Of a DNA stretch of 64,000 nt, positions 22,820 through 49,830 are shown piece after piece. Under the pieces are notes generated by a model. It did not search any database, was not told where the DNA came from, and saw only the letters and a list, made by a program, of their open reading frames with translations. This stretch comes from Cenococcum geophilum (lineage: Eukaryota): the NCBI GenBank assembly GCA_050273025.1, contig CP158635.1:14818001-14882000 (forward strand), given 5' to 3'. Both the position numbers and the translations under genes were made by a program. Positions within the stretch are counted from its first letter, which is position 1. Each line of letters opens with the position of its first letter.

Positions 22820-23110
22820 CGCTATAGGCACCTACTATTATGGGTACTCCCTAATATTATAGGTGTTCCCCGTTACTATAGGTACTGCTACTTATAGGTA
22901 CTCTCCTTTATTACGGGTACTCCTTATTTTCGTAGGTACTTTTTATTATAGTAGGTACTCCTTATTATTGTGGGTACTCCTTACTATTAGAAGCACTCCC
23001 TATTATAGGTACTCCCTTTTATTATAGGTGCTCCCCGTAATTATAGGTACTTATTAATATCGTGGGTACTTATTAATATTATAGGTACTTATTAATACTA
23101 TAGGTACACC
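22820..23110. repeat. Degenerate ~19-bp tandem array (core GGGTACTCC / TAGGTACT)
   Basis: More than 12 recognisable units. Confidence 0.85.
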
Positions 23111-23155
23111 AAGTGCACTAAGTGCTAGCTTTTTACAGCTGCTTACTTTAGACTT

Positions 23156-23500
23156 AAACCCGCCCTAAGCTTAGTATATTCCTCTATTAAGTTAATAGCT
23201 AACCCCGGCGTCTTTAGTTGTTATAGCTTATAAGCAAACCCGCCCTAAGCTTAGTATATTTCTCTATTAAGTTAATAGCTAACCCTAGTGTCTCTGGTTA
23301 GTATAGTATGTAAGTAAACCCGCCCTAAGCTTAGTATATTCCTCTGTTAAGTTAATAGCTAACCTTAGTATCTTTGGTTGTTATAGCTTATAAGTAAACC
23401 TGCCCTAAGCTTAATATATTCCTCCGTTAAGTTAATAGCTAACCCTAATATCTCTAGTTGGTATAGGATGTAAGTAAACCTACCCTAAGCTTGGTATAAC
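23156..23500. repeat. 80-bp tandem array, 4 copies plus a partial
   Basis: Units start AAACCCGCCCTAAGCTTAG at 23156, 23236, 23316, 23396 and 23476. Confidence 0.95.
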
Positions 23501-23549
23501 CTAATTTTAGGACCCTTTATTTTTAGCTAACCGTAGTTAGGGGATCCTA

Positions 23550-24080
23550 GTTACGTTTAGAGAATAGCTATATCTAGAGAATTATCGGATGCCTAATTGG
23601 CCTAAAATGACCGGTCCTCTTAGTAGCGCTAAATAGGAGAACTATGTCTGGAGAACTATGTTTGGAGAATTATCGGATGCCTAATTGGCCTAAAATAACC
23701 GGTCCTCTTGGCAGCGCTAAATAGGAAAACTATGTCTGGAGAACTATATTTGAAGAACAGCTACGTCTAGAGAATAGCCACGTCTGGAGAATAGCTATGT
23801 AGAGGGTAGCTATGTCTAGAGAACAGCTACTAGAGAACAGCTATATAGAGGGCAGCTATATCTAGAGAACAGCCACTAGAGAATAGCTACTGGAGAATAG
23901 CTACTAGAGAATAGCTACTAGAGAATAGCTACGTCTAAAGAACAGCTACGTTTAGAGAATAGTTATATCTAGAGAGTAAGAACGCTACGTCTAATAGCTA
24001 TATCTAGAATAGCTACGTCTAGAGTAGTTACGTTTAGAGAATAACTAGTCTGACAAACGGTTATATTTGGAGAATAATAG
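23550..24080. repeat. 13-17-bp array (TCTGGAGAACAGCTACG-like) with an embedded 88-bp duplication
   Basis: Many GAGAA(C/T)AGCTA units. ATTATCGGATGCCTAATTGGCC occurs at 23581 and 23669. Confidence 0.9.
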
Positions 24081-25104
24081 TCTGCAGAAAGTTATAACTA
24101 GTCTAAATTTTACCTATTTTACCTTCTTTCTACCGCGCCTAATATATCTTATTACTATAGATTTAAACGCGGTACTTTTGTTAATATAGCCTTAAGAAGA
24201 AGTTTATAAAGCGCCTCTAAAGGTAAGTGTAATATAAAATCTATAATCTAATATAATTAAGATAGTAGAGGTTTTGTATAGAACATAATTAGCAATTTAA
24301 AACGCCTATAGATAAAACCTTTATAGCATCTAGAGCTGCTTTAGCACTCTCTTTTATAGTTAAGCTCTATTAAGAATTAAGTATGAGGATACTTTGTATA
24401 CGAGATATAAGGGCGTTACTTGCGAGACATAATCTATAGTTTAGCGCTAGACTTTTAGAGGAAGGACTTTTACGGCTATTAGGACTTAGTATCTTCCGTT
24501 TTAAATAGAAATTAGTTAGAAAATCTAGCTCTAGGTAACTATTACGTAGATCTAATAGCTTACCTTAGTAAGCTTAGACCGTAGAATTAATTAGCGGATA
24601 TTGCTAACCTTTTTAGTTAAAAAGCTAATTCTATGGTGTGGGAACTGTAAAGCTTATTAACCTAAGTTTATAAGTAGTTTGTTACTTTTAGGTCCTAAAT
24701 TTTTAAACTCTAATTATAATTAACTACTCTATTATATTTTAAGCGGGTTTTTCTTCCTATAAATTATAAGTTTTCCCCCTATAACGGAGTAGTCTGCGTA
24801 GGCTAGGTTAGGATCCATATTAGATATTAATTAAAGAATATCTCTCTCTCTTTTATATTTTAAGTAGAGGGCTTTATATTAAAGCTCTGCAGTCTAAGTA
24901 TATACTATATTTATAACTAATATAATCTTAATTGCGAACTATAAAAGCTATATTAAAAGTCTTTAACCCAAAAGCCTTTATATTAAAAGCCTCTAAATAA
25001 GGGCCTATTAAGTATAAACTCGGGTTAAAATTTTTGTTAGTAGACCCCCAATAATCTATATATTGCTTTTGGTTTATCCCGCGTATAAGGGCAGATCTAA
25101 GCGA

Positions 25105-26968: not shown

Positions 26969-28788
26969 CTATATAGAATTGGTCTTTAGAACCTAATGCT
27001 TAATTTTATAAACTATTTAAATATGGCTTTTAAAGTATAGAACGCCATTTAATATTATATAGCTTTCCTTACACACTAGATAACTATAGAGAATTTTTAC
27101 ATTTAGTACAAATAAATGGAAATGTTTATCCTTAATATAATCCATTATTTTAGCTAGCCGACTCTAACAGAAAATCCTCTATTAGTAAGGTAAATACTTA
27201 TTACCTATATAAAATAGACACTAGTAAGGGTTATATTTTAAAGGGAATAAATAAGGCGTTGCCAAATCTTCCTGCTTTATAGCTATCCCTTTTAATAAGT
27301 TAGAAGGCGTATTTCATTATTAAGCCTCTTAACGTAAGTATAACTTTATAAAATTTTAGATAAAATCAATCCGCTAGTTAAGGTTTACTAGCTCCGCAAG
27401 ATCTTTATATAGGCTGTAAAGTAATTCTATAATGCGGGCCCGCTGCTCTAGCTAGTAGGTAACAGTGGCGGCCTAGTTAGCAGCGCTTAAATTATTAGGT
27501 AATACGCCTTTGCACTCCTCCTTAAGCTCTATTATATTATTATTTATAAAATATACTTCTCTAGCCATTTATTCTGCCTTATCTTATAAACGCTTTATCT
27601 TTTAATTTAGAGTAGCGTTTACTTCTTTTTTCTGTTAAATAAGATCTTTTTTATTAGAAAGAGTAAAAGGCTTAGAGCTATTTTATATCTGTCTTATTTT
27701 CTCTATTAAAATATCTCTCTACTAACACAACTTAACTATTTTTAGGTGATTTGTAATTTCGCATAACTGCTCCTTAGTTAGCTCTTTTAGCGCGAGCGGG
27801 TTAAATATTAGGCTTATATTTCCTATAACCTTTACTAAAGCCCTATTAGATAGCTTGTCTAAATATACTACCTAAATATTATACTTAACGCGCTAGTTGA
27901 TATAAAACTAAAATATACTGTTATAAGAATGGCCCATAACCTAGTCTCGTTCAGCGGTAGTTGCTATATTTATAAATTTGGGTAAAGTTAGCCTAGATCT
28001 ATAGAATAAGTAGAATTAAGCTAATAGGGAAGAGTATACTATTAACAGCATTTCTAGTGGCGTATTAGATATATAATTGCAATAATAGCTGCTTAAGACC
28101 AACATCGCGTCTTAGTCACTTTATATAATAGTAAGAAGTTTTGGCGCGCAGGGGTATAGGGCTCTTTTTAGACGCGGAAGTTTGGCATTTATAATATTCT
28201 GGTTCGCAAAATATAGGTTTATTTAGCTTACTCTCCTTCCACCTAAAGATTTTATATAGTTTTTAAGCGGGAACCTAAGCACGTAGAATTTTTTTAGGGT
28301 TTTGTATGGTTAAGGTAGCGAAGGCATTATTATAAAGTCCTATAGCAACTATAAGGGTAATAGGATAAAGGAAAGGGTTAGGATTCTAATATAATTTGTA
28401 TATTTTCCTATAAACCTATTAGCCTATAAATATAGGGAAAGTAAAATAGGAATACTTGTGGTTAAGGCTTTTAATCCTCTCCCTTTCTACGGATTATTAT
28501 AATAAATATAGCCAGTACTATATAATCTCTAACCTATACTATAAGTATTATAATATCCTAGTAGAGTATTAATTTTAATTTATTTATATCCACGCCCGTA
28601 AAAGAGATTTCGTCCTTATTATCCTCGCCATTATTTAAATACGCGCTTTTATATCCATTGTTAATTTTATTAATATTATTATAAGAGTTAGCCTCTTTTA
28701 TATTACTCCCTATAACCTTATTAACCTTCTGTCGGTATCACCTAGGGGTACTGCAATTGCAATATAAGGTAACTGTTTCTTGATTCAT
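26969..28788 (-). pseudogene. DUF3435 tyrosine recombinase (Starship captain-like), RIP-inactivated, apparently short at the N-terminus
   Basis: Minus-strand translation gives RKGED(R)KP(Q)P, FRWKESKLNKPIF, L(G)RDVG, TTAERD(Q)VMGHS..F(Q)FYIN (~27890-27965) and a C-terminal (Q)CLF(C)IG..LP..R.FC..(H)...C..(H)FKSH...(H) zinc-finger region. There are about two introns and a candidate ATG at 28788. Residues in parentheses are de-RIPped. Confidence 0.85.
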
Positions 28789-29044: not shown

Positions 29045-29460
29045 TCTGCCATTTTAGCATTTTCTAGCATTTCCTAGCATTTCTAGCATTTCCTAGTATT
29101 TAGCTGCTAAATGCGGTATTTAGAATTAAGTGTTCGCACTTAGCTGCTAAATACAGCATTTAGAATTAAGTATTAGCATTTAGCTACTAAATACGGCATT
29201 TATAATTAAGTGTTAGCATTTAGCTACTAAGTGCTAACTATAAGATTACTAAGCATATATAAAAGTATAATTTTTATTATTTTAATATTTTATATACACT
29301 TTATTAATATTACTAAGCATATATAAATATATAATTTTTATAAATATAATATTTTATATACGCTTTATTAATATTACTAAGCATATAAAAAAGTATAATT
29401 TTTATAAATTTAATATTATTAATAAAAATAATATATTTTATTAATATTAGTAAACATAGG
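29045..29460. repeat. 40-bp palindrome-containing array followed by a 64-bp AT-rich array
   Basis: TAGCT(G/A)CTAA at 29101, 29141, 29181 and 29221, within the hairpin GCATTTAGCTGCTAAATGC. ATTACTAAGCATATA at 29245, 29309 and 29373. Confidence 0.9.
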
Positions 29461-29859: not shown

Positions 29860-32800
29860 ATAGTCTTAGTATCTTCCTTCTTATCTTAGCCTACTTTTAA
29901 GCTTAAATCGGCCTTCTCCTTATATACCAACTTATACAGTAATAACGTAAATTTAGTTAACTTTAATATCCTTTATTTAATACTTAACTTCTAATTAGCT
30001 ATAATAGTATTATAGTAAACGGGCTTAGTCTATCCTTATCAATCTATTTAAGCAAATAGTTACTTTACCTCTAAGAGCTTATAGCTTAGCTTAACTATAA
30101 TAGTATAATTTACGCGCTATAGGTTAATAGATAGCTTAATTAATATAAAGGTACAAAGTAGGATCTACTTAGAGTTATTAGTGTTAAAGGTTTACCTAGC
30201 CTTAGCTTTCTTAATATTAGATATACCGGCTATATAATAGAGCACCTTATCTTTACCGTATTCTTTATATAGCCTATTAAACTAATAAGCTAGCGTAAGA
30301 GGTAAGTAAGTAGTAATAATAATCTTACACGCTAAACTATCTATTTATTTTTCGATATAAACATAATTATAGATTTTTTTAGCTTAAAAGAACTTTATAT
30401 TCTCTTAAAAATAGCGGTTAAGTATATTAGTAAACTCCTTACTAAGTAGGTTAGTAATCTACTTAGTGATAATTAGGTCCTTAAGTACGCAACTCTAAGT
30501 TTTTAGGCGTTTGTTATTAGACTTATTAAACTTATTAGACTTAATTATAATAGGGGTATACTAGTCCTAGTATTAGATAACCTAGGCTATACTTATTACC
30601 ATTTTCGCGTTAGTATATAACTTAGCTTAGGTAAGTTTTAGTATCTTAGGTTTAGTATTTAAATTACTACTATCTTCCTTCTATATAGCTAGAAGTTCCT
30701 TATATTAGCGCCTCTACTCTATTCTTACTTAGTCCTCTATAGCTATAATTATAGCCGCCTTAGTGTTATTAGGGTCGGCTTATAACATAACTAATTTAAA
30801 ATAGCTATTTTTTAGGATAAGCTTTTGCTGGTTAAACTAGAGTATTAACTCCCCTCTATATATCTAAAACGTTAAAATAACTATACGGAAAAATACAACT
30901 AGTTCGCCGAATTTCCTATCTACTATTACTCTAACTAGGTTAGTTTTCGCATCCTTATAAAGACGGTTAAATTCCTTCTTCTTTAGCTAGATATTTTCTT
31001 CTTTAAGCTTAAACAGTACTTTAAACTCCGTTCCCTTTAGCTTATTAGCTTCTTTCTACTCTAGCCTCTTTAATCCTACCGTAATAAACCGCATTAGTTA
31101 TATTAGGTTTCCGTTATTAGGCGTATTAAACGTACCCTATATAGCAGGGCTGCGATTATATATAATACGGTACTCCTTAACTATATCCTTAATAAATAAT
31201 ATTAAGACTTTACTGGTTGCGTTTAGGTGGCATTTATCCTAAAGGATACGCTTAATCTATATTATACTTTTCAATTTCTAATACATTCTAGGGGATTAGC
31301 TATTTAGGTGTTTCTATATATTAGTTTATATAGTAATAAACCCGCGTATTAGTTGTGTGGTAATATAATTTCGCGTAGTAATTAAAAGGAATTAGGCTAA
31401 GTATCTTAGCGCTAATAGTTCTATTACATTAGGGGTAGGGTAATAATTATTCTTAAACCTAGCTTTACCCTACGGGTATAATAGAAGAGCCTTACCAACT
31501 AAATATATATCGTTATTATTCTCCCATTATTCCTTATTAGTCCACTTAAAAGCCTTATAGATTTGCGGCTATTTATCCTTTTTTAGTTTACTAAATATCT
31601 TAACTTTATTATAGTTAAGGGCGAGAATTGTAATCCGGGGCGGGTTAGGGCGCTTTATAATCGCGCCGTCTTATAATATTACACTCGCGTTTTTTAGAAA
31701 TCCTAGTAGGCCTAGGGTTAGCATAAGGACGACTAAATAGCCTCGTTATAGGTCTATAGGGTACAGCTTTTTAGAGTTATCTTTGCAGTAGTATATAATC
31801 GGCTATATTACTACCTATAGGCATTTTATATCCAGCGGATGCATCTTAGGTAGGTAGTAGGTTACATCCCTAGTAGCTTAGGCCTCTTAAATATCTATTA
31901 CATTCTAATAATAAAAGTAGTTTATTAGCTATTAAGTGATTATTTATATAGTCTTACCTGCGCTAGGTTCGTCTACATAGATACTACTTTCTTTAATTAT
32001 CCTCTTTTACTTAAATACCTAAGCTATATATACTACTTAGTATAGGCTAAATTTAAAGCCTAATATAAGGCCCTAATTAGGGAGTTTAATTAGGGCGGTT
32101 TTAGAGAGTACTTTTAATAAGATAAGTAGGAAATACTTTAGAGTAAGCAGAAGATCTACCTCCATTATATATACTAGTATACTATTTAGGTTATCCTTCC
32201 TAGCCTTATAAAGCTGGGCTAAGAAAGTTTATTAATTAAGTTCTTCCTCTATATTTATATTTTAGTTATTATTATTAACTAAATCCTTATCTTAGTTGTT
32301 ATTATTAACTAAATCTTTATCTTTATCTCTACTTTTATATTCTTAGAGTTAGTATAATATAGGAACTAATTATTATATCCACTAGTACGTTACGGTAATT
32401 TGCTATCCTCTATGGTAATATCTTAAGGGATATTAATAGTTAGTAATATAGCAGTAGAGTCGTCTATTATATCATTAGGCTAGTATATACCTTTAGGTTC
32501 AGTAATAAATTATAGCAATTTACCGTTATCTGCGGTAATTTCTCTAGTACCGCTGTTACTTACTAATATAGGCTTATAGGTAGATAGGTTACGTCTTCCC
32601 TTTACTAATTACCTTCTGCGCATAACCGGCTTATTATTACTGTTTTTTATAAGGGTACCTACTGTTAATTCTGCTTAAGGGCGTTTCCTATTTCTATTTA
32701 GGTTAGCCTTGCGACTATTTAACTTCTTAGGCGCGGCCGGCTTACTTTTATTATCCTTTACTAGGGCACTTATTACCAATCTTAGTTAAGGCTACTTATT

Positions 32801-33950
32801 ATATCTACCTAATTTAGTCTTACTATTATCCGATTTCTTATATCTAATAGGCTCGCCCTTACTATTTTCCTTAGAGTTATATATTGCTAATTCTAAATAA
32901 CTCCGCTTTTTATCTTCTCCTAGTTTACTTTTACCGCTAGCCTTACGCGGCGTTAGGACTTGCTAGCTATCTTTTACGCTATATTTATGGCGTTTAGGCG
33001 CCTTAGATTTAATAGCTAGTGGTATATTATTAGCGGCAGCGACTTAGGAGTTTAAGCTAAAAGGTAAGAGTAATGCTATAAGCATAGCCTCCTTTATACT
33101 ATTTCTTGCTATTTCGCTAAGAGCTATAATAAGTGTGCCCTCTAACCATATTATAAGGTTTTTATATCTCTACGGCAATATATAAATATTCTTTTTAGGT
33201 AAACCGTTAATATTAAGCTCTATATAGGCTTATAGTTCCTCCTATAGCTTACCTAGAGCTATATATAGGTTTCCGCTTATTAGATATAAGACTTAAACTA
33301 CCCTAACTATTAACCTACCCATTAAGCCTATAGATTAGATTTTAATTTTAATATCTCCTATATTAATTACGTTGCTTACCGCTAGGGTTACTAGCTAAGG
33401 CAAAGGAATACTATATAGTAGGGTTATAGTAACGTCTATAGGCTATATTATATATAGTAGCTAAGGTAGCGTTATCTCGTCTTATGCTTTGGTCTTTAGG
33501 GGTAATATATATTTACGCAGAGCGTACCTACTCTTAGAGGTACTTAGTACCCTCCTTACGCGATTAGAATAAGCACTTCCTATAATTTTTAAAATTATCT
33601 ATAGTTTTTAATCCGGTAGAGCATTAGTAAATTATAAAAGTTACTTATAAAACTCCTTAACGTGCCCTTCTTTTATTATTATAGAGTTACCGCAATATAT
33701 TACGTGCTTAGGCTTAACTTTAATTATAATATCTTTAACTATCTCTTTTAGTCTATTATAGTTTTTAATGCTTATTTTAAAGCCTTAAGCAATATCTATA
33801 TCTTTAATCGGCTTTAGGTTTACCTTATACTATATATCTAGCTTTACCTATAGTTACGTTATTATTAAGTCGCTTATTTAGTTAGGTACGTATAATATTA
33901 CGGCATATATTAAGTAGAAGGTAACTATTAAAGTAGGAGGGCTTTATACG
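29860..33950 (-). pseudogene. SNF2/SWI2-family ATPase with a long N-terminal extension, RIP-inactivated
   Basis: Motif I (GG)I.VDEP(G)AGKT at ~31950-31990, Walker B RIL(W)D(E)CH at ~31225-31250, motif V INL(Q)R(A)N and motif VI (R)ID(RQ)G(Q)TKPV at ~30015-30135. A stop-interrupted but continuous-looking frame extends up to ~33.9 kb. Confidence 0.85.
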
Positions 33951-34331
33951 GTAGCTAGCTAGCGCTATACTAGTATAACTCTAGTATTAGATATAGTTAG
34001 AGGTTAGTTATAGAAGAGATAGAAGATAAGGTAAGTAAAGTTAATTAAGAAAAGGTAAAGAGGTAAATCTTATAATTACCCGTATATACCTATATAAAGG
34101 TAAAATTGGCTATAGTTTGCTATTACTAGTTAGGGTAAATGCGGCTAGACTTAATACTATATAGTTAAATAAGGGCATAATTATATAACTTATAGGGACT
34201 ACCCTACCTAGCCTATTTAGGGCTAGGTAGCGGTTTAGTACCGCTAAACTTTTATAGTTTTTAATATAAGCAATTTGTTAAGTACCTATAAAGGGGTAGC
34301 TAGTTATTATAGTATAATAGAATATAGGAGG

Positions 34332-34657
34332 TTATAGGCGTTACTATATTTCTTATTATTATATGGAGTTAGTATATATACGCGCCGCTAGAGTTAAAGG
34401 GCTAGCCTATATCTATATATGTGGGCTCTATTACTATAAAGTGTTTACTATATAATAGGTAGTATTTCTAGTAAATGGTGATATATTATACTTATTATAG
34501 GCGTTACTATATTTCTTATTATTATACAAAATTGGTAGATATACGCGCCACTAAAGTTAGAGGGCTAGCCTGTGTCTATATATACAAACTCTATTACTGC
34601 AAAGTACTTAGTATATAATAGGTAGTACTTCTAGTAAACGGCGACGTATTATACTCA
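34332..34657. repeat. 163-bp tandem duplication between the divergent helicase genes
   Basis: TTATAGGCGTTACTATATTTCTTATTATTATA starts at 34332 and again at 34495. Confidence 0.9.
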
Positions 34658-35739
34658 CTTTATAATCGCTAGTGTTATTATTATACTATATAGTACTTAA
34701 GGGCCTACTAAATAAGTTTATCTAAAATAATAATTATCTAGTGCCTGGGATTTACGTCTATATATAAATATCTAGTGCTTATTTAAACGCATATTTACCA
34801 TAAAAGGTAGTAAGAGGTTTTATATTTTATATTATAAGTTTATATAATTAATAGCATTTTGCGGCATTTTATAGTATTTTAGAGTATTTTAGGATAGTAG
34901 ATATATTGTATATACTAGTATCTAGCCACTTAGTAATATTAACTTATCTTACTATTTATCTATTTAGTATTATATAAGAGGTTAGTATTCTACTATAGTA
35001 TTTATTATATTAGAGTCTCTTAAATTTAATATCTTTATTTTAAATTTATCTAAAACTATATATAGTTTTATATATCCCACTCCCCACCTAGTACTCTAGT
35101 AAGAGATTATTTAGTTAATAATACCTTTTCTCTTACTAATTAAGGGAGGAAAAGACTTATACTTTCTAGCAGTAGTAGGCTATGCTTATTAGTGATATTT
35201 TTAATAAATTATAGTATTTAAGTTTCCGTTTACCTATAACGTAATTAGCCTACCTATAGTAAAGTGCTTTTACTTTACTACTTACTTCTCTTTTCCTTTA
35301 CCCTTCTATATATTTATATACTCGTATTATAAACTATAAGAGCTTAATAGTACTAAACTATTACCTAGCCTATATTAAGAGATAGGCTAGGTAAAGTAGT
35401 CCCTATAACTTATACTATACCGCGTCTTTTTTTATAGGTTAGTCTTATTACTATAAATTTACCCTTATACGCGTTTAACCTATATAGTATATAACTATAT
35501 ACTTTGTCGCCAAGGTCTTACTTATATAATTTTATTAGGGCGCGCTTTATTTTCTTACCTTTACTAGTTAACCTAACTCTACTAACTACCTACCCTTACT
35601 CCTACCCTATTAGTATCCACCTTTATAACTAGTGCCTTTATAGATTTATTTAAGCTATAGAGCCTTATAATATAGTAAGTTAGCTGCCTTATCTTTGGCC
35701 TTAGCTATATAATAGAGAATCTATATTTACTAATATGTT

Positions 35740-38700
35740 TATATAGACTACCGCTTAATACAGCCTACTACTAAAATAGACCTACCTACTAATTATTTTA
35801 TAACTTATGATGTTAACTACGTTTATAACTATAAAAAGTTCATTAAGGGTGTTATAGTTTTTAAGATTACCTTAATTATAGCAGCTATAGGCTCTAGTAT
35901 CTTATAAGGTAACGGTAAAGGCCCTATACTTAATTAGCCTCTTCTTTTAAAGCTTAGCAGTCTATACCTCTTAGCTAATAATACTCTAAAATGCTATCTC
36001 TATCTATCTACCGGCCATATACACGCTAATTATCCTCTTAAGAAAGCTTCTTAACTTTATTATAGCTGTAGTAAGGCTAGTTATCTTAAAGCTAACTACC
36101 TTAACCCTATATATAATAATTATAGGGAAGCTAGTTATCTTAAGAGTAACTATTTTAGTATAACGTATAACTAATATAGTGCTATAGGCTATAGAAAGCG
36201 AAACTATCCCTAGCTATTAGGTAATAAAAAAACAGACTTGCCTAAACTATAGCTCCCTAAACTATTAAACTATCTTCTATAATTAGGTATATAAGAACTA
36301 CAAAGTTATAGGGTATAATATTAATAATTATATAAGTAGACCTACTTTAATTCGGGTAATAGACGCCACAACCGCTTTAGGCAAGGTAAATGCATTAGGT
36401 ACTACTACTTTAAGTATAGCTATTACCTCTCCGTCGCCTAAACCTCTTAATATAGCTAGCTTCTATCTAGTAGTATATAGCCTAGTAGATAATTTAAACA
36501 TCTATATAGAGGATAGCGATTCCGTAATAGCTAAACCTTTAGATATACTCTAGCTTCTAAATAACAACTACCTTATAGTTTAGTTTATTATGCAAATTAT
36601 TAAAGAGCATATTATAGTATATAGCATTACATTTTAGGTGTTTTATAAGACCAGTAAAATGCCTACTTATTATTTATATAAGACGGCGTCTATCTAATTT
36701 ATAAATACTAATATTACTAGCAATGTTAAGGTTAATACTACTAATACTGCTTCTCTAGTTACTTAACGACTATTATATCTAACTACGCTTAAGTATCTTA
36801 CTTATATTCTCTCGCAAGATGTTATAACCCTATAACTTTACTATATTAGGTTTATTATCGCCTTTAATAAACTTATACTAGGTACGCGCACGTTGCTTAG
36901 TAAATACTTCTTTATTAATAGGGACTTTGGCCTATTTACGCCGTAAATCTATAAAGCTTAGGACATGCTGTTAAATAGTCCTATAGTTATTGTCCATTTC
37001 TTTACGCTAGGCACTAAATGGCTTAATAGTTATATCGCGAGCCTAAACGCGAGCCTATAATAGTAGAGCGTTAATAATCCTTTAGGTTGCTAGTGGAAGA
37101 ACTATAATATAAATATCTAGCTTAGTATATAGCTTTTAGTAGAGGACCAACTATCATATAAAATCCCCGCGAGGTATTAGTTTGATAGCGTTCTTAAGTA
37201 TTTTACGGTCTAGTTTTATACCGCAGTTATAAGCCTTAAGGCCGTTAATTAGAACCCCTAAGTACCTACTATTATTTATCTTATTACCTTCCTAGGTAGC
37301 GCGGACTAAGTCTACTACGCTACTATTTAGATAGTTAATAGTCTTACCCTTCGCACTAACTCTATTATTAATATCTTATTTTTAGGTAAAGACGTAGATA
37401 GCTAGGCCAGCTAAAAAGGAGTTATTATTAATACCACTCCCTTTAACTCTAGCTATAACTACTATACTTTTATCTTTTAACCACAGGTGGGTTATAAGTT
37501 TATACTAAACCCTATATTTGCTCTAGAATATATCCTAAGCAGTAATAACTTTATAATAGTTAGGAACCTAAGTAAAGCCCTAATTACGGCATAGGGCATT
37601 AAATATCTTATAACTAAGTATATTCCTAAGGTTAGAATCTCCTAAGAGATTAATACTCTACGCTACCTATAGCAAGGAGGCGATAGTTTCTATATTAAGC
37701 GCTAAACTATGCTATCTAACAACTTCATAGATCTCCTGCGTATTAATTACTTTAACTGCAATATTGCTAAGTATAGGAAGAACTTAGTTAATAATGCCCT
37801 TAAGGCCATCTTACTACTACTTAACGAAGAGTAAACAGGTGCCTATACTGCGCTTAAATATATAATAGGCGGTATTTTGCTAATATAAGGCCCTGGTAGT
37901 GTTAGGAAATTAACCTTCCTAATTATTTTAGTACAATACTAGTATTAACTTAGGTCGCCCTAGTAGGATCCTACTAGAATCTGGGTCCTATCGCTGCTTA
38001 ATTACCAACTAAATATGCTGGCTAAGATAATTAATAATGCGCTTATAAAGGACTATAAGGCTGTCCCGCTAAATTTCCTATTATCCTTCGCCGCTATATG
38101 CGCTTAACGGAAACTAAGGTCTATAAGTAGGATGCCATTATATAGCGAACAGCGGCAGGTATAAATACTCGTCCTAAGTATTTTAAGGAATAGGATAACT
38201 ATGCTATAATTAATAAGGACGCGTCTATGCTAAATATAGCATTCCTACTCTACCGTAGGTTTAAGGCTAGTAATACTACTAGCTTTAATAAGCAGTTATA
38301 GGTTATATATTTGTCTAAAGGTTAGTAGTTATTACGCCTTATAGGTGTTTTAGATAGTAATAAAAACCTATATCCTATTATAGACCCTAATATAACTAAA
38401 TACGCCAAATTCCGCTAATACTTGTACTAATTTGCGCTTAGTAATAATATAATATAAGATAATAAGATAGGATTAACACTTACGGCTAATATAGTTATTA
38501 TAAACCTAGCTAAAAAGGCTAATGTTATTCTTATAATACCTAATATAGTCTTACAGACTTATATATATTCTATTAGCGCTATATATATAGTTTTCTATAA
38601 TAAGGCTAGAAAGGCGTTTAAGCCAAACAGTTTTACTAGGTTTACCTAGAGCAGACCATATTTAATCTAGGGAGGTCTATAGATCTAGGCTAGTAACCCT

Positions 38701-39831
38701 GTGCCTTAGGTTTTCCTTAGTAATATATACTAACTAAAACCAATCCTTAGTCCCGATTTTAATAATCCGTTCTACTATTAGAAATTTATCTCCCTTTATA
38801 CGCGTCTCCTTATGGCTAGTGCGGATACGGTGTAGTTCTCGCTGTAATATTAATTTATTAAAGACATTATATATCTTATAAATACCGCCCTACCATATAG
38901 CTAGCTTTAGATAAGCCTAATAGTTAAGGACTAAGAGCAGTCGAAGCTAGCGGCGAGCTTTTTTAAGGATATGCTACGCTACAACCACCCTATTGCCTTT
39001 CTTGCTATTAATAGTACTATATAGGTAAACGAGCTTAGCTAATTAACGTATAACCTAGTTTACGCTTAACGCGTATTTTAGGTAGCTATAGCGCTAATAG
39101 ACTTTAGATTTAAGCCATTAGAGGTTAGCCTTGCCGTTCTATATATAGCCCAACTTGCCATCTACTCTGCAGCGCTATATACGCTTAAAAAATGGTGCTA
39201 CGCCTAGTAAGATAGCAGTAAGTGGCGGGAATTTACGCCAGTAGTTAGCGAGATTAAGGTCTTTACCGTTAACGGCATCTAAGGCAGCTAGGTAGAGTTA
39301 TTAGTATATAATATAATAGTCGCCAGTTCGCTAAAATTTATTTAGAATATAGTAAGGAACCTTTTTATAATTACTAGACTATAAGCGGGCCTTATTATTA
39401 TTAGTAGTTCCTAGGTAGTTTATAATTATTATACTAGCAATAAGACCTTTATAAATACCGCGTATTATAAAATTAAGAAGTAGTGTAAAAATAGTAAGGT
39501 ATTTATTAACCTTAAGAATCCTAAGCAGAAAGAGCACTTCTAGCAACTTATTGCCCTATTTAACGTTAACAAAACTATATATTATATCTACCGCTAGCAT
39601 ATAGCTAATTATACGCCTATTTTATATAGTATAGATATTAACTTTAATATTACTATCCCTAACTTTATAGGTATAGTAAATATTAGTAGTACTAATAATT
39701 ATACTAAAGCGTAGAACAAGGCTAATAAAGAGGGCGCTAATAATAACGGCTAGGGCGGTGCCGGTAATAATAGCGGGGATAACAATAATGGAGAGGATAT
39801 TAGTGGCGTCAGAATATAAGGAGGGTAGTAA
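35740..39831 (+). pseudogene. Upf1/DNA2-like SF1 helicase with three N-terminal CCHC zinc knuckles, RIP-inactivated
   Basis: Three C-x2-C-x4-H-x4-C knuckles (de-RIPped) at ~36058-36210. LNEE(Q) and I(Q)GPG(G)V(G)K(S)T at ~37820-37915, VF(HDE)A(G)KA at ~38590, FL(GD)I(HQ)LKP at ~38715, TV(D)GI(Q)G at ~39265 and motif VI TR at ~39375. Stop at 39829-39831; the start is uncertain. Confidence 0.87.
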
Positions 39832-40932
39832 GAATGGATATTATAGACTTTACTAGTAGCAAGACCCTTAAATAGGGATATTAGATAGAAGTTAAGAGCG
39901 GTAGTAGCTATAGGCCTTTAACATTTATAATTTTACTACAGCACTAGGTAAAATATGGTATATTATAATATTATATATTACAGCTAAATAAAATATACTT
40001 TTAATAATTATAATCTCCAAAATAGATATGCGCATTATGGTAAAGATAGCCCAATTTATAAAGCCTAGTAATTTTAGTTTCTATCCCTTATAGGCTAGTA
40101 GTTAATTAATACTAATCTATAATCTAGATTTTAAGGGGTTATTTGGTTATAATCTATCGCTTTTAAATCTAAACTAAAAATCTAGCAGAAAGAACGCGTT
40201 TTTTTTCGATTTAATACGCATCTATAGCTCTACGGATTGTACGGATATATGCAATCTAAAGCCTTTAGATTTAATTTAGAGTTTAAATAAGAAGCTTTAA
40301 GCTCTTAATTTAAACTAACGCTAAGACCTTAGTTTAGATTCTGTATATAGTAAAGTTACTAACTTTTTAGTAACTTTTAGCGTGTTTTTTAGAACATCAA
40401 AAATTTATAGCTAAAGTTAAGTTAAACTAGAATTTAACCGAATGGTCGCCTTAAAATTAGATTAGAGCTTTAAATTAACTCTATTTTAAAGCCCTTATTC
40501 TAATCTAAACTTATAACTAAATATTCCCTAAGTACTTAACTAGTTAGATTATAGTCTAGATATCTTGCTAATAACCGTAACTATTATTAATTACTCTCCG
40601 TATAGTAGTATAGGCCGCCTTTATTTTCGCTAAACTATAATAGCCTTAAATAGGATCTAATCCTTTTCTTACTATAGCTGCCGCTAAGGCAATGTGACCT
40701 AACGCCCTCTCCTGCTTATATTAGGTATGCTATTCCTAATATTAGCACGCCGTTACTATATCTTAAAAAACTTATCGCTAATGCTATAGGCCCTTAGAAT
40801 AATACCTGTCCTATTATACTAGCTACTAGCTAGTAAAATACAGGACAAATATAATGTCTATATAGTTGCCCCTAATAGAAGAGCCTGTAGTAAAGGCAAT
40901 TCGCTATACTATATTTGGATAACTTAAGATTA

Positions 40933-43900
40933 TATCTATCTATCGCAGTTACGTAAGGGGATATTTAATTTTTATATAATTGGGAGGCGTAGGGCTATAA
41001 GGTCGCTCTAGGGCTAGTTCTTAATAGTTTTGCTAGTTCCTAGCACTTAAATCTGCTAAGGATTTGCCCTAAAGCGGCTAGATGTCCCTAACTATAAGCC
41101 TATAGCTGCAAGACTATCTAACTATAGTGGTCGCACTAAGGCTAGTTCTTAGTGGTTTTGCTAGTTCCTAGCACCTGCTAAAGAATTGCCTTAAAGCGCT
41201 ATCTATATATAATGTATACTAAGTATAAGGGATAGCAGGTAGGGAAAGCGAATTAGCCACGTAGTGACTGCGTTTGATATTCGTAAATATTGCAGGAGGT
41301 CTTAGTATTATACGTTGCTAAGGTGGATGCTGCTAAGCAATATATAGACGCTAGTATCTATCTATTGCAGTTACGTAAGGGGATATTTAATTTTTATATA
41401 ATTAGGAGGCGTAGGGCTATAAGGTCGCTCTAGGGCTAGTTTTTAGTAGTTTTACTAGTTCCTAGCATTTAAATCTACTAAGGATTTGCTCTAAAGCGGC
41501 TAGATATCCCTAAGCGAAGCTCCTGCGCCTAATAAGACATTACTATATTCTGCTATATTCTGCTATATTATTATATTCTACTAAATTCTACCACCTTATT
41601 ACATTCTGCTAAATTCTGCTATATTCTACTAACCCTAAGTTATAAGCTAACTAATTAGGATTTTCTATGCCCGGTATAGAAAATTACTATTAGCTTACTT
41701 ACTACTAGTGCCTTAGCGGCCCTCTTAATATCTTAACCTGCTACCTAGTAATCCTTACGCTAAAAGCGGTATACTACGCTGAAAGTAAGAGTTAAGGTAA
41801 TAGAGGTTAGTGGTTTTAGTTCTAATATATAGGCGGAAGGCTTCTAATAACTACCAACCTAGCTGCTGAATTTGCTAATATAAACACCCTAAATTTTTAG
41901 CGAACTGGGCAGCGCCCTAGCGGAAGAAGTAGTTTAAGTAACTACTTAGGTTAATCCTAGCAGCTACTAGATAGGAGGAAAGGATTTTATAAACCCCTAG
42001 AGAGGTAAAGGGTTTACTATTAAGACTAAATAAGGAAGAGTTAAGGGGTTAAGGGTCCCTATTAAACAGCTTTATTATAACAGCGACTAGGCATAATAGG
42101 CCGCCTACTGCCGCGATAGTGACGTTAACGCCCTAGTATTGCTTATTGGCTTTGCTCTATTTAAGGCGGAATATTATCCTACTAGGCGTAAAGGTAATAT
42201 TATATTGGGTAGCCTTTTTTGCTAGAAAGGTTGTTCGGTTCTTAAGCTCCGCCGTAGTATACGTAATTTTACTTATCTATAGAAATCTAGTAAATGCGAG
42301 GGTAAATATGGTATTAGTGTTGACATCCAGTAGCAATAGGCTGTGTGTTACTACCTGGACTAGAATATCCCTAGTAATGGGTTGCTTATCCTTTTTTGCT
42401 AAGGGAGAGATAGTAGCTGCTTTGGCGAGTAATTGGTGTACTATAGGATCCTTAAATGCTATAATTAAGATGCTGTAATTAATGTGGCGCAAGCGAATTG
42501 CGGAGATATAGGCTTATAAGGTTTTGGCCTTAAGCCTATCTATCTATAGCTAGGAGGTACTAAACGCGCGGTAGGTAATCTGTTCGCCTAGTTTATGCGG
42601 CTTAGCTAGGTAGGGGGAGACTCCTTTAAGTGCGCAGTATAACTCCTAGCTGTTAACTACTAAGGAATAGTTCCTATGGGTTGCTAGCGTAAGGCCGTTC
42701 TAGAGAAGGAGCGCGTAAAGGTTAGATAGCGCGTTAATATTATTTTTAAAGTTTATAGGCGGTTATAAGTAGTCCGTTAGGTTTACGGCACCTATTAAAA
42801 ACTTATTAGCTTTAGTAGTAATAAATTAAGGGCCTAGTATAGGTAGAACTAATAGATAGCTATAGCCTAGAATTAAGATAGTATATTAGCTAAGCTATTT
42901 AAATTACCTAAGATCTACTTCGTGGATATTATAATATTATAAGCTATAGTAGCTAGTATGATTTTGCGGAGCGATTTATTTGCTACGCTATAAATAACGG
43001 TCTTTTTAATACCCTGGTGAACTACTATACTATTAATATAAATAGATAGCGCGCTATACTGCTAGTTAGTAGACTATAGATTAAATGCGTAAGTAATAGT
43101 ATACATCTCTTTCGGATTAATATAGTCTACTTATTAACTGGGCTTAGGCAATATACTAAACGCCTAAGATTAAGGGAGGTTGGCTATATACTACTGCTAG
43201 TTATTCTTATATTTAAGTTTCTTAAAAAAGTAAAAGCCGCTAAACCTAAACTAGGTAGAGGCGTTAGTAAAGAGATAAATATAGGTACGCTTGACGTTAT
43301 TAAAGAATAATACCCTATTACTTATAGTAAGTAGGTTAAGCTAGATATATAAGTCACTTCGTAACTTAGTGCTAAATTGCCTAGGTTTATACTTATTTGC
43401 TAGAGTCTTTAGCTAAGTAGTAATAAAAATTTAGAGGAATCTAGAGTAAGATTAACTAAGTTTAATTATATAGGCGTACTATACAAGGTAGCCCGCAAGC
43501 TACTAGGCTTAAAGGAATAATAATAAGCCGTATTAGAGTGCGGTAGTGACTTTTTTAATAGCATATAATTGTTTTTGTGGTAATAATCGCGTCTGTATTT
43601 ATATGGTATTAATAGTATATCCTAAAACTTTAATAATAGTTTCTGCTATATCTTTAGAGCTATTTTAAGGGATACCTAGGGAGTTAGTAATAGAGATGTA
43701 AGTCTAGGTAACAGCCGCTAAGTTGTTTAGGTTAGTAAGGATAAAGATAAAGTTATTTAGGTAGTATTTTACCTTATAAGGTAGTTATAAATAGAGTATC
43801 TAGTGCAGGCCTTCTGCGAAGAGGTTAAATATAAGCGGCGCAGTTTAAAGACTAAAGGATAGGTAGTATTTTTAGTAGGTAACACCTTCCTAGGAGAAGC

Positions 43901-45716
43901 CTATTAATATTCTTACCCTATAAGATAGGGGGACTATATAGAACGCGTCTTTAATATCTTTTTTAAGTAGTAAATATTTACGACCTGCAGAAATAACGTG
44001 GGCTTAAATAGTGGTAACTATAGTGTATACTAGTGCTCCATATTCTTCTAGGATTGCGTTATTAACTAAAGATGCTAGTGGAAAGGAGAGATTATAAATT
44101 TAGCGGTATCCTCTATCCGATTTTGGCACTAGGCTAAAAGGTAAGACTATAATAGGCCCTGTCGCGATTCTAATATATCCTTTTTTAAGGTCTAATATTA
44201 TCTTCTTAGAGATAAGGTTGGCGTTATCCTAAGAGAAGTTGTGGTTTCTATAAGATCTTAAAGTAGGGATAGATTTGGCTCCTATCTTATAGCTATAGGT
44301 TAGGATGCCTACTAAGATGGCTAGTAAATTGCCTAGGTAGTTAGATAGAAGGGAGTGCTACGCTAAGATTCTTAGGGGTAATAGAGAGTAGTAGAGAGCC
44401 TTCGCCTTTATAAAGGTAGGGAATAATGGTAACGTATTAGGCCTAGGTCCTAGGCGTATAATTAAAGTTATTATTATTATTATGCTAGACCCTACTTTAT
44501 AAGGTTCGCCTTACTATTCCTAGGCGCAAGCTTTAGATAATATAGTATAATCTTTACTACACTTTAAGTACTTATGCGGGTATTTGCAAGCTATATTATT
44601 GCAGCCTCTACTATTAAATTTATGGTAGGTATTAGAGGTATAGGAGGTATCTAATCTAGGTTTCTTTAAGGCAGTAAAGCTAATAGTACTAGACATTGTG
44701 AGGTATGGCGCTATATACTAGGCTAGCATTTACTAATTAGCGGGCTTTAGTTAGCCATTAGTTATTATAAAGGTGTAGTAGTTAAGTGCTAAATTAAGTA
44801 TACAATCTACCTAGATATACTAGGTTAATAAGGTATAAATTATATTTATTTAGAGAAGTATACTAGCAATAAAGTCCAGCGGGCATGTATAAAGGGTGCT
44901 AGTAATAACTATATAGTTAGTAAAACCTTTAAACTAGACGCCTTTATCTATAAATAGCTTCCTATCTACCTTTGCCTTTCTTATAACTAGAGTACTATTC
45001 TTAATCCGTGTCTTATTAGCGATCTTAATTTAAGCGGTATAGACTTAAAGATAGGCAAGGTTTACTAGATTAAAGGTACCCTTAAAAATATCTAAGTAAT
45101 CCCTTTTTATAACGCTAGGAAGGCGGAGTTTAAGTAACTTTATACTAGGAGGGAGAGGCTTACTAAGGATATTAGCTATAGTAGCTGTTATAATGGCCTA
45201 TAAGGCTAAAGCGGCTAAGCCTAACTATAATTAAGCCATTTAAGCTAGGTAGTATTTATGCTAGCAAGCCTCCTCTACTAGGCGGGCTTTGCGCTCTTCC
45301 TTATACTTCTAAATCTCCCTTTTATCTTGGGCTTGTTCCCTTTACTCTTTAGTAATTTCGCGCTCTTTTACGGCAGTAGCGTATATATTAGCCTTGGACG
45401 GCATTATAGGATTAATAGAGGAGAGTGTAGCGGTTGTAGACGATGGTGTAGTTAAGGTAGGTCGTCTAGGTAGGTTTACTTATTAGGATTATATACGCGT
45501 ATAAATCTCCTAGTTAGTTATAAGCAGTAATAGCGTTATAAAATAATTCTTAAATAAATAAATAATAAATATACAATAAATATTAATAAGTTTAGCAATA
45601 TTAAAAGCGAATTAGCCATGTAGTAACTGCGTTTAATATTCGCGAATATTGCAGGAGGTCTTAGCATTGTGCGTTACTAAGGTAGATGCTGCTAAGCAAT
45701 ATATAGACGCTAGTAT
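40933..45716 (-). mobile_element. Ngaro-type tyrosine-recombinase retrotransposon, structurally complete, RIP-inactivated
   Basis: Split direct repeats: A1 45604-45716, B1 41358-41513, A2 41245-41357, B2 40936-41091. Gag with a Cys/His finger (~44550-44630), RT/RNase H (~42.8-44.3 kb), and YR with KQPITRDIL..FTLAF.(G)FL(R) (ORF 42277-42492) and H(S)FR.GAAQ..IQQLG.(W)..EAFRLY (~41825-41935). Confidence 0.92.
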
Positions 45717-47099: not shown

Positions 47100-48518
47100 A
47101 TTATTTAAGATAATAGAAATGGAAGAAGGGTAGATATAAGGGCGTTAATATTAAAGAGATAAATAATAATGCACCCTTACGCTATTAAAGCTGAGAGGAG
47201 TATTAGATAGCCTATTATAGGGCTAAGCTAGAGCAATATAATAAGTGGCTACTTATATAATATATAGACGACAATATACTATTATAATATTAAACCTTAA
47301 AAGGGTATTATATAACTAATTATAAGGCCGAATTAGAGTAAGATAATAAGTAGCCACCTATATAAGCTCTAGGCGATAATATTATTAATAAGCTAAATAA
47401 CAGGGCTACGGATATACACTATAACAATAATTCCGTAATATTTAATAGGGTATATAACCTAGTAATAGTTAAGACTAATTAGTAAACTTTAACTGGAATA
47501 TCTATAGATGTCTTTTAGACTAAAATATTTAAAGAGGCCACTGGCCGCGCTATAGGAAAGCCTCTGGAATGGAACTAAGGAAATCCGCAAACTATAAACG
47601 ATACTATAATAGTATGCGATATTATACCGCGTATTAAGCGTACTAGCAATATACTAGATAAGACACCTCCCCTATTTTATCTATTTAGTAGTAAGGCAGA
47701 ATACGCATAAGTCTTATAATAGGTAAGCTATAGGACTTTTAACCGCGCTATTAACGAGTAGTTTAACGATATTAGGCTTTAGGGAGTGTTTACTAACCAT
47801 TTTTCTTACTAGAGTGCTAATAATATTAAAGTAAAACTACTTTTAAAATAGATGTAATCTAAAAGTAATTAACCGTAGTAGATTAAAATAATTATAACTA
47901 TAGGGGACTAGTAGCTGCTAGTATATTACCGAAATGCTCTAAAGATCGTATCCTTCTTTATTAGTTACGGCCCTTTTTAAAGAGATATAACTTTCTCGCT
48001 AGTAAGGTAGTACTTATTAGTAGGAATAAGAATATATAATAAGCTTAACACAGTAGACTAGTAGTAGGAGACGTAAAAGCAGCTACTGCTTAGCGTAACC
48101 ATAGTGCTAATTATATTAGCTAGCGATAAGACCTAACTAACATAACATACCGGCGGCAAGAAAGCATAGCCGCTCTATATTTTAATTGGAAATATTAAAC
48201 TACGCGTTTAATAATCTGTAAATTAACTAGCCCTATTACTGCTTATATATCTCCCGGTCTATATACCTAGCAACTAAATAATATAACTAGCGGTGCAATA
48301 TAAGACCCTTACGGCTATCCTTAAACGTATGCTTTAGCGACAACCCTACTGCTAATATAGTTATACTAATAATGCCTATAGCGTTAGAGAAAGCTAATAA
48401 AAAAGAAGTACGTCTTTTATATATAGATGGCTAGGATTAACACTACTTTCTACTTTTAGCTATATTTATGGCTAATTATAAAGAATAGGTTACGCTTATA
48501 GGTATTAAGAGTGGCTGG
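47100..48518 (+). pseudogene. Plavaka transposase (CACTA/Mirage/Chapaev-related), RIP-inactivated and 3'-truncated
   Basis: RIYN(E)LNT.D(WWW)ET(Q)KQL...TIV(P)IILASDKT(Q)LT..GGKKA(W)PLYI.IGNI at ~48030-48196. After a probable intron comes DG..(R)H(C)F(P)LLA.FMA(D)Y.E(Q), up to ~48518. Confidence 0.88.
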
Positions 48519-49009
48519 CTTTCGTCTTCATGCACGAGTACATTTTCTAATCTTCTATTTTGAGAAGTGAGATGTTTCTTTAGAGAAAGTACTATTATAG
48601 CGGCCAAGCTCATGCATCCAATGCAAACGAAAAGTCCTTTCATATGCAAGGGCTCATCACTATGGATGTAATTGTTGACGCCTACCGGAAATGCCAAGTG
48701 TCCCACATGGTCGCCGAAATGCAATAAAGCAAAGCTCACACATTTTCTCCATTTGGTGGGACTGCTGTTAAGAGTTTATGCTTTGGCTAATGCGACGATG
48801 CTGAAATACCCATTCATGATAGGATGAATTCCAGCATATTGCCACCCCAACTCCATTTGCTTAGCCGCCATGAGAGCCATGAGTAAGAACCACATCGCTG
48901 CGAGGAAGGCACTGTAGAAGATAAACATGCCACGTCTCCGAGATTGGTCGGACAAATGACTTGTGACGAATCTGGGGCTAATTTTGGAACCCTCGTTAAA
49001 AGTTGACAA
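48519..49009 (-). pseudogene. Fragment of an MFS transporter (allantoate/nicotinate-permease-like C-terminal half)
   Basis: ORFs 48776-49009 and 48476-48739 give SDQSRRRG.FI, hydrophobic helices and L..QNRRLE. The reading frame is broken and both ends are missing. Confidence 0.6.
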
Positions 49010-49830
49010 TTTCTTTTGACTCTGCCACGAAGTGAGCCGAACCTAAGTTAGGCCTAATAAGCCGGCCTAAGTAAAAGCGGCACCGGGAGAAGGGGGTAGT
49101 ATAACTAATATAATAAGTTTTCTTATATTAATAGGTTCTAGGTATTAAACGCCTTCTCGATTTATATAATATATATAGCTTTATAAATATATTACTAGAT
49201 AGTCTAGAAATGTTATATAGTACTTAATAAATAGTATTATAAGTAGATTATACATTACGTTCATTAAAACCATTATTTCTAGATTTCAAGCCTACGAATA
49301 TATTATAAACATGTTTAGAACTGCTTTATAACCATATATTTTCCTCTTCAATAATGGTGCTCCGTTATACTTAAAGACGATCGTTAAGAGTTAGAGTAAA
49401 GTCTTTAACGTCTCTCTTAGTACTTCTATATTATTAATATAGATATCTAGTAGCTAAAGCTATCTATTATTAAAGCCTTCTTGAAATAGATCAGAACACG
49501 GTTAGAATATATTATAAACAACTTACCCATTTTTTATTTCGTGCTTTTGATGAGAAGTTAAAATATAAATATCATGGTCAACCGACCACGTGACAGGGGA
49601 CCGCCTAATTTCGGCTAGGTCAGCCGAACTTTTAGTGCGGTCAGGCGGCCTGCGCTACGCGACTCGCATTAGGCAGCTCCAGGCTCCAACACCCATGCGA
49701 TATTACCGTTTGAGACGCGATATCTCCGCTCTCGTGGTGCACATAAAGTCTTGCGCCCTTTGTGTCCTCGGAATTGTTCTGTGAAGCGAGCTTCCAGCGT
49801 AGTAGTCTAGGCTTCTTCTGCGGTGCTCCT

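Follow-up and report, generated by a model that had tools for sequence, protein, structure and literature searches.

What was the gene whose remains lie in a heavily mutated part of the Cenococcum geophilum genome, and what did the tail of its product bind? The window analysed here (the whole stretch of 64,000 nucleotides from positions 14,818,001 to 14,882,000 of contig CP158635.1, assembly GCA_050273025.1, forward strand, numbered from 1) contains a pseudogene for a Upf1-like helicase with CCHC zinc knuckles, broken by the C>T and G>A changes of repeat-induced point mutation (RIP). An earlier note, made from the letters alone, had drawn attention to three TAG codons in the Gly/Asn/Asp-rich tail that, if derived from TGG, would place tryptophans in Gly-Trp (GW) contexts of the kind by which some silencing helicases bind Argonaute (Ago), with the caveat that TAG can also derive from the Gln codon CAG. 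We find that the three tail TAGs were indeed Trp codons and that the locus is a RIP-dead copy of a many-copy repeat gene for a knuckle-bearing Upf1-like helicase; its product was probably an RNA helicase that worked at silencing, with the Trp tail as a tether to a partner.

The three TAGs stand at 39712..39714, 39751..39753 and 39826..39828 (all +), the last of them directly followed by the true stop, TAA at 39829-39831 (+), so that the pattern reported for the tail is present in full. Among protein fragments from sister copies of the gene, Trp occupies the first place in 7 of 8 (the eighth, P0021, has Gln), the second in 4 of 4 and the third in 1 of 1, where it is the last residue of P0035 (..QKGW); at the nearby TAA at 39817, by comparison, no fragment has Trp and P0035 has Gln. 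The intact counterpart of the gene, protein P0055 (1,355 aa), carries W1318 in the context AWN, W1331 in GWG and the C-terminal W1355 in GGW at these places, its C-terminus reading ..EAWNEADREGANNNGWGGAGDNNEDDDGGEDVGDGKQGGW, that is AWN, GWG and GGW-COOH, and none of the three Trp is lost from any of the 7 tails in its 90%-identity cluster while the flanking Gly, Asp, Ser, Glu and Lys vary. The proposal that these TAGs are RIPped TGG, and the reading of GWG and GGW in the tail, are thereby borne out, and an ancestral CAG is refuted at all three places by the intact homologues recovered. The caveat about CAG does hold for the gene at large, since its 49 in-frame TAGs fall in P0055 on 33 Gln, 10 Trp and 4 Arg; with only 10 of 49 TAGs derived from Trp, the finding of three out of three in the tail is all the more notable. 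The tail codons were read from the protein fragments: of the 1,846 changed places in a comparison with contigs of other copies, none of the 40 listed is a tail codon. Gln calls in the fragments deserve less trust than Trp calls. P0010 has Gln at four places of a window TAG, and both it and P0021 show Gln where others have Trp or Gln; to judge by these sequences, such residues may come from database gene models in which TAG was read as Gln under a recoded table, so that only the Trp calls are trustworthy in fragments of this sort.

The tail itself (39571..39828, +) is rich in Gly, Asn, Asp and Glu and predicted to be disordered: in P0057, which is intact and belongs to the cluster, the predicted local distance difference test score (pLDDT) is below 50 over the last 85 residues. 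Its tryptophans are spaced by 13 and 24 residues, and in close relatives Gly, Asp, Asn, Ser and Glu together account for 0.45-0.59 of the final 110 residues. The tail thus combines Trp in a small, polar and acidic context within disorder with the retention of Trp while its surroundings drift, as looked for in Ago hooks. Further afield, 16 relatives at 22-40% identity include 7 that end in Trp, and several have GW/WG repeats in tails rich in Gly, Asp, Asn, Ser and Glu, as in P0051 with GGWGDEGTGGWGNEGTGDWGDEG. In the intact protein P0066 (1,377 aa) a duplication of about 22 residues of the tail adds a fourth GW, which by its sequence looks like tail evolution by repeat gain.

The pseudogene spans 35776..39831 (+) and represents one ancestral open reading frame (ORF) of 1,350 codons plus stop, as its end-to-end alignment to P0055 shows. 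The span first proposed, 35740..39831, was right at its end and too long at its start: the former start codon lies at 35776..35778 (+), now ATA by a G>A change from ATG, and aligns to M1 of P0055 and M15 of the relative P0005. The frame is interrupted by 81 internal stops (49 TAG, 32 TAA and no TGA) and by two frameshifts, tblastn with full-length proteins following it in frame 1 over 35776-36222, in frame 2 over 36224-38053 and again in frame 1 over 38056-39831. The lack of TGA had been considered as evidence and was dropped, TGA-free frames of thousands of codons being common across the RIPped block. The first shift (frame 1 to 2) lies in a run of seven A with one A too many (36219..36225, +); base 36225 is left out by the contigs of most other copies (depth 1,696.7 of 2,362.9 in run X1 and 453.3 of 466.2 in run X6; the runs are described below). 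The second (frame 2 to 1) is a deletion of about 16 nt at 38054..38055 (+), which three sister copies, P0042, P0003 and P0031, read through as ..DYKALITQGRPAKFP.. and at which residues 760-765 of P0055, six in all, have no counterpart in the window, the only gap of the alignment. No second copy of the gene was found within the window.

Codon by codon, the correspondence with P0055 has the stamp of RIP. Among the 1,349 of 1,350 codons that align, 789 are identical, 510 differ in a way explained by C>T or G>A alone and 50 do not. The internal stops fall on Gln, Trp or Arg of P0055 in 78 of 81 cases, and alignment of the last six residues by eye adds a 79th and an 80th; at the 11 stop columns that are invariant across 8-10 more distant homologues the residue is likewise always Gln (7), Trp (2) or Arg (2). 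Seen from the side of the intact protein, 5 of its 16 Trp are still TGG in the window, 10 are TAG and 1 is TAA (last residues aligned by eye), 49 of its 61 Gln and 18 of its 76 Arg are now stops, and Tyr codons replace 21 of its 27 Cys and 34 of its 38 His. By sequence, then, P0055 is the window gene as it stands without RIP, and the copy in the window is inert, permanently silenced by RIP. A search of its three raw forward frames against Pfam, with X at stops, gave no family in the helicase gene, but such blanks carry little meaning in RIPped frames because RIP hides domains. As a lesson of method, even a heavily RIPped pseudogene can be read reliably: a question at the level of single codons was answered by database ORF fragments from sister copies, and then by one intact counterpart.

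Relatives were collected by an exhaustive phmmer search with window 37837-39831 (the C-terminal 665 codons, X at stops), which returned 53 proteins (best E-values 2.4e-82 and 5.1e-60) of two kinds: (i) full-length, compositionally normal proteins of 1,000-1,800 aa (P0002, P0004, P0005, P0007, P0008, P0017, P0018 and P0022), the full-length relatives including KAJ4286924.1, a 'hypothetical protein' of Kalmusia sp. (Pleosporales); and (ii) short ORF fragments, several dozen in number and with 60-83% identity to the decayed reading, which are pieces of sister copies. P0055 was recovered by searching for longer proteins with the closest fragment, P0001, and bears the JGI name 'cellular nucleic acid-binding protein'. 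Its 90%-identity cluster has 13 members (JGI, ENA and Logan), among them at least four full-length intact ORFs of 1,355-1,377 aa that are mutually 93-94% identical; two more copies are split into two gene models each. The presence of several full-length intact ORFs in public assemblies implies that the gene is alive, or was until recently, somewhere in nature. Other searches were less productive. A word-index protein search with P0002 (whole, or residues 330-1260) returned P0002 alone, the index being swamped by knuckle proteins; in a related-locus scan with the family alignment, with knuckle patterns as query, 80 of 80 loci were generic CCHC proteins without a helicase part; full-length P0002 matched nothing in the Atlas beyond generic AAA_11/12 helicase clusters, some of them nematode clusters of 'CCHC-type'; and no paper on this knuckle-helicase family was found in PMC open-access full text and bioRxiv, subscription journals lying outside that scope. 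The family is thus uncharacterised, with no name, Pfam architecture or paper found by search, and intact copies exist for experiments.

In the intact product a short N-terminal beta element is followed by six CCHC knuckles, a folded N-domain, a Upf1-like superfamily 1B (SF1B) core and the disordered acidic tail. The knuckles lie at 35992..36331 (+), where a pattern that allows for decay of Cys and His to Tyr, [C/Y]x2[C/Y]x4[H/Y]x4[C/Y], occurs six times in a single frame, most of the Cys and His codons now being TAT or TAC. Over six frames of 1-49000 the same pattern matches 17 times in 97,996 positions, and six of these matches fall inside one 340-base stretch; at matching places P0055 and P0002 each carry six CX2CX4HX4C units, all intact. 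Knuckles had been recognised here before as three, and their presence holds up by the pattern scan and both proteins while their number doubles to six. The PDB profile matches of the knuckle part include AIR2, Gag and the HIV nucleocapsid protein (NCp7). The linker and N-domain that follow (36340..37150, +) have no Pfam, PDB-sequence or Atlas match, an Atlas search with the P0055 N-domain giving nothing usable. In a model of P0018 the N-domain is folded (residues 137-330, pLDDT ~65-88), and a fold search disclosed no relative of it, residues 137-330 being barely covered by that search.

The core, together with a part aligning to the Upf1 accessory domains, extends over 37160..39570 (+), an assignment on which phmmer, the Pfam families of relatives, profile and fold comparisons agree. 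Its helicase motifs can be placed in the decayed frame (all +): motif I at 37889-37915, motif II at 38596-38616, QHRF at 38845-38856, DGIQGG at 39271-39288 and ITRPRAGL at 39367-39393. GxGGTGK (Walker A), DEAGK (motif II), QHR and DGIQG are invariant or nearly so in four family alignments. The SF1 helicase motifs read in the decayed frame by the earlier note are thus in place, phmmer linking that frame to knuckle-helicase proteins with the best E-value given above. P0055 and 8 of 9 homologues searched with Pfam have all three of zf-CCHC, AAA_11 and AAA_12, and the ninth, the C-terminal fragment P0001, has AAA_12 only, which brings AAA_12 to 9 of 9; in P0055 AAA_12 scores E 8.7e-20, over the curated cut-off, and AAA_11 E 1.5e-4 at 22.1 bits, under its cut-off of 27 bits. 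Against solved structures the family profile matches UPF1/NAM7 best (E 9e-39), then Aquarius, senataxin (deposited in the PDB listing as a 5'-3' RNA helicase-like protein), IGHMBP2, SEN1, ZNFX1 and DNA2 (to 4e-19). For the fold search we used an AlphaFold2 model of P0018 (pLDDT 76.7, predicted template modelling score 0.73), to which Upf1 is again closest (Z 28.0, root-mean-square deviation 4.5, 520 residues aligned), followed by IGHMBP2 (Z 25.8), SETX (Z 24.1), Dna2 (Z 23.1), Sen1 (Z 22.6) and ZNFX1 (Z 21.8), at 18-23% identity in the structural alignments. The match sets in at about residues 310-340 of the model, ahead of the first RecA-like domain, with motif I (GTGK) standing at 583-586 of P0018. 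MOV10/SDE3/Armitage chains are missing from the PDB sequence matches and from the 50 listed fold matches, and their absence from these lists excludes nothing.

The label Upf1-like is therefore well founded, UPF1/NAM7 coming top by profile and Upf1 by fold, and the same ranking could be taken to mean that the gene is simply a decayed orthologue of a housekeeping helicase such as Upf1, Sen1, Dna2 or IGHMBP2. We regard this as very improbable: the UPF1 sequence match is limited to profile positions 844-1186, the second half of the core, and the structural identity is low; in 10 family proteins searched with Pfam (E up to 0.001 or 0.01), no family for the zinc-binding CH domain of Upf1 was listed; six CCHC knuckles, an unmatched N-domain and a Trp tail are foreign to those orthologues; and the window gene is multi-copy. 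Judged by its domain architecture, the family looks like a separate branch of Upf1-like helicases and not an orthologue of housekeeping Upf1 or Sen1.

The gene sits in an AT-rich, RIP-mutated block that fills 1-49 kb of the window (GC 0.24-0.45, against 0.45-0.56 past 50 kb). TpA/ApT is 1.46-2.01 over 1-48 kb and 0.73-0.90 over 50-64 kb, and (CpA+TpG)/(ApC+GpT) is 0.25-0.66 and 1.12-1.37, respectively; over 34-42 kb the longest surviving ORF has at most 55 aa. To see how often the gene occurs, contigs of four runs (two isolates labelled one species, a root metagenome and a soil metagenome, X18) were mapped to 33001-43000 at 80% likeness or more. The runs contributed 13,530, 12,225, 16,910 and 10,134 short contig pieces, figures that, like the depths, are no calibrated copy number and mean only 'many'. 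The changed places relative to the window number ~250-420 for each type of transition and 1-11 for each type of transversion, and divergence that consists almost wholly of transitions among thousands of pieces indicates many RIP-diverged copies. The gene occurs in this fungus as many diverged copies and has intact copies in other public assemblies, as the earlier description of it as repeat-borne would have it. Contig depth stays level between 33001 and ~41016 in each of the four runs, even in X18, which nearly lacks the repeats past 42 kb, so that the repeat unit is at least 8 kb long, reaching upstream past the mapped stretch and well beyond the 4-kb ORF.

What carried the gene is less plain. 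No pair of long terminal repeats (LTRs) or terminal inverted repeats was found bracketing it, even in a transition-blind self-comparison (R/Y, A/T-collapsed), and no reverse transcriptase (RT) motif was found on its strand within 24-43 kb, RIP lowering the sensitivity of both searches. Pfam found nothing in the flanks, neither at 39832-44001 nor in 7 low-stop frames of 28.1-34.1 kb. The one recombinase gene nearby is a RIPped tyrosine-recombinase gene of the DUF3435 family at 27359-28400 (-), recognised by Pfam in two pieces, on either side of a frameshift near 28000 (E 7.4e-15 over profile positions 214-412 and 4e-10 over 96-210), 7 kb upstream of the helicase and in divergent orientation; this match came from a stop-density scan of the RIPped block that was too noisy to define ORFs. 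DUF3435 is a hallmark both of Crypton-like recombinases and of the recombinases that serve as 'captains' in giant Starship elements (PMC8092012). The helicase might then be a host gene, possibly a cofactor of RNA silencing, that was amplified as cargo or by segmental duplication and thereafter RIPped, with a DUF3435 element as the potential carrier. A repeat unit running from 33001 to at least ~41016, far in excess of the ORF, would suit such an origin, as would the case of P0005, whose gene is annotated like any other on a Kalmusia contig of 661 kb. RIP-destroyed clusters of amplified endogenous genes are documented for a related fungus in the portion of PMC3017866 that concerns them. The intact copies at 93-94% identity, however, suit a recently active element as well as they suit cargo. 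A Starship captain, moreover, is the first gene of its element and is transcribed into it, and the DUF3435 gene points away from the helicase, a layout that would leave the helicase outside that element. On balance we think a host origin unlikely, though by no means far-fetched, and favour the reading of the gene as one that belongs to an amplified repeat. Naming the repeat by way of the transposable-element tables of Leptosphaeria maculans, as far as these are given in PMC3105345, was unsuccessful, and the dinucleotide distances were uninformative.

How, then, might the protein have worked? The knuckles, like those of CNBP, Air2 and nucleocapsid proteins, would bind single-stranded RNA; they would also load the helicase, the core would act as a 5'-3' translocase on RNA (or DNA) like Upf1, IGHMBP2 and Sen1, and the tail would serve as a short-motif tether to a partner that has pockets for tryptophan. 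Argonaute is the best candidate for that partner, at somewhat below even odds, because of the Gly/Asn/Asp/Glu context, the spacing of 13 and 24 residues, the disorder, the retention of Trp amid drift and the SDE3 precedent. As the gene is on, or itself is, an amplified repeat, the protein would most likely work at the silencing machinery on transcripts of the element itself, and could there blunt silencing or exploit it, as a suppressor, a decoy or a cofactor.

The gene and tail may also be as described without the tail being an Ago hook: its tryptophans would dock elsewhere or intramolecularly, and the helicase would be there for RNA handling or replication of the element and not for silencing. 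The CAF40/NOT9 surface of CCR4-NOT, for example, is another partner with Trp pockets and is used by GW182 too. Consistent with such a role, the tail holds just three Trp, a C-terminal Trp after acidic residues is common to several unrelated short motifs, and CCHC knuckles are typical of the Gag/ORF1 chaperones of retroelements, in line with the PDB profile matches to HIV nucleocapsid, Gag and Air2. Tryptophans flanked by Gly, Asn, Asp and Glu in a disordered tail at such spacing nonetheless fit descriptions of Ago hooks, and the recurrence of the GW/WG habit in relatives at about 22-35% identity argues for a conserved partner, though it does not name one. We consider a tail docking away from Argonaute possible, and not what we would expect.

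Several observations weigh against our preferred reading, that of a repeat-borne RNA helicase tethered by its Trp tail and acting at silencing. Classic Ago hooks often have more Trp than the three found here, and partners other than Argonaute also make use of Trp in disordered acidic tails. Nine of the 16 distant relatives do not end in Trp, and GW/WG is absent from the last 110 residues of five (P0004, P0018, P0038, P0039 and P0050), some of the relatives lacking such an end perhaps being truncated gene models. The substrate of the helicase, RNA or DNA, is taken from its nearest relatives. With no transposase, RT or terminal repeat tied to the gene, 'element-borne' stands on copy number, for which the contig counts and depths say 'many', and a look-up of the stretch in RNA runs gave no rows recorded as RNA.

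A bolder proposal is that a family of fungal mobile elements, in Pleosporales and beyond, might encode its own Ago-hook helicase, a GW mimic joined to an RNA helicase and a set of RNA-binding knuckles, that intercepts or exploits the small-RNA machinery on element transcripts, and that RIP killed the family here. We hold this to be doubtful. An Ago-hook helicase would offer no escape from RIP, because RIP acts on DNA. We know of no fungal transposon-borne Ago-hook protein, and none was found by searching PMC open-access text and bioRxiv; if true, this would be the first described. Transposons would then join the RNA-silencing arms race in fungi, with GW tail and helicase in a single repeat-encoded protein. 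The natural intact copies of the P0055 cluster make this a testable candidate, with the three tryptophans as points for mutation.

The remainder of the window holds further traces of repeats. RIPped repeat DNA gives way abruptly to ordinary gene-bearing DNA at ~48000-50000, both RIP indices flipping between the 46-48 kb and 50-52 kb bins; an exact protein look-up of four long ORFs beyond this border found 0 of 4. Tandem-repeat blocks lie at 22817-24101, 29093-29417, 32611-32939 and 34331-34659, the last consisting of two copies of a 163-base unit, 1.1 kb upstream of where the helicase gene starts. A less RIPped (GC ~0.43) Copia-type LTR retrotransposon occupies 5598-11998 (+), with LTRs at 5729-5999 and 11728-11998 (271 bases, identical in a transition-blind comparison) and a 1,692-codon frame with ~4% stops, a Gag knuckle and a weak rve match (E 0.0048, under the curated cut-off); an apparent '6-kb tandem' in the window was rejected, as it is this element. 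A further LTR pair, 13695-13885 and 20935-21125, bounds an element of 13695-21125 and encloses the RT motif YLNNILIFS at 17615-17641. A second copy of that RT region lies at the window start, within 134-1339 (YLDDILIYS at 543-569), the corresponding repeat pairs being 134-820 with 17206-17892 and 1118-1339 with 18160-18375. Downstream of the helicase gene, 41017-42018 exceeds the helicase region in summed contig depth by a factor of ~2-7 (X1, X5 and X6), with joints and loose ends clustering at 41544-41730 and direct repeats around it (40932-41091 with 41354-41513; 41244-41357 with 45603-45716), and may be a solo LTR or a small element of very high copy number. At 43482-45239 (-) a low-stop frame has a weak RVT_1 match (E 7.2e-4, 19.8 bits, under the cut-off of 29.6 bits) in a repeat that is nearly absent from X18.

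In light of known systems, the closest precedent for the fate of the gene is X3X3R8 of Stagonospora nodorum, a RIP-degraded repeat of endogenous genes that include Rad5-like helicases (PMC3017866, in the section on this repeat). Akin to the window gene, it is a helicase-coding repeat that RIP has hidden and that only less mutated copies make recognisable; it differs in coding for Rad5/SNF2 and RecQ helicases in place of a Upf1-like one, and knuckles and a GW tail are absent from it as described there (PMC3017866). For the core, the best solved relatives are UPF1/NAM7, IGHMBP2, senataxin/Sen1, Dna2 and ZNFX1, from which the window family is set apart by an identity of 18-23%, by its knuckles, N-domain and Trp tail, which they lack, and by having no listed CH domain. 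For the knuckles, the CX2CX4HX4C array with a spacing of ~18-22 residues is shared with CNBP/Gis2, Air1/2 and retroviral nucleocapsid, which are small and without a helicase, whereas the window family has one. For the tail, the parallels are the GW/WG Ago hooks of GW182/TNRC6, Tas3, NRPE1 and SPT5L, in which Trp likewise stand in a disordered Gly/Asn/Asp/Glu context, several of them more than 10 residues apart, and are conserved over their surroundings, and the viral mimics that inhibit Argonaute, P38 of turnip crinkle virus and P1 of sweet potato mild mottle virus; the window family, known here from its sequences, differs from both in having only three or four Trp, one of them C-terminal. RNA silencing is known to be recruited or disarmed through the GW tail of SDE3, itself a Upf1-like helicase, and through the GW mimics of plant viruses. 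SDE3, MOV10 and Armitage are Upf1-like silencing helicases that target transcripts of repeats and transposons, SDE3 with C-terminal Argonaute-binding GW motifs. The window family has the Upf1-like SF1 core in common with all three and the GW C-terminus with SDE3; they are single-copy host genes with other N-terminal domains and no CCHC knuckles, whereas the window family is knuckled and high-copy.

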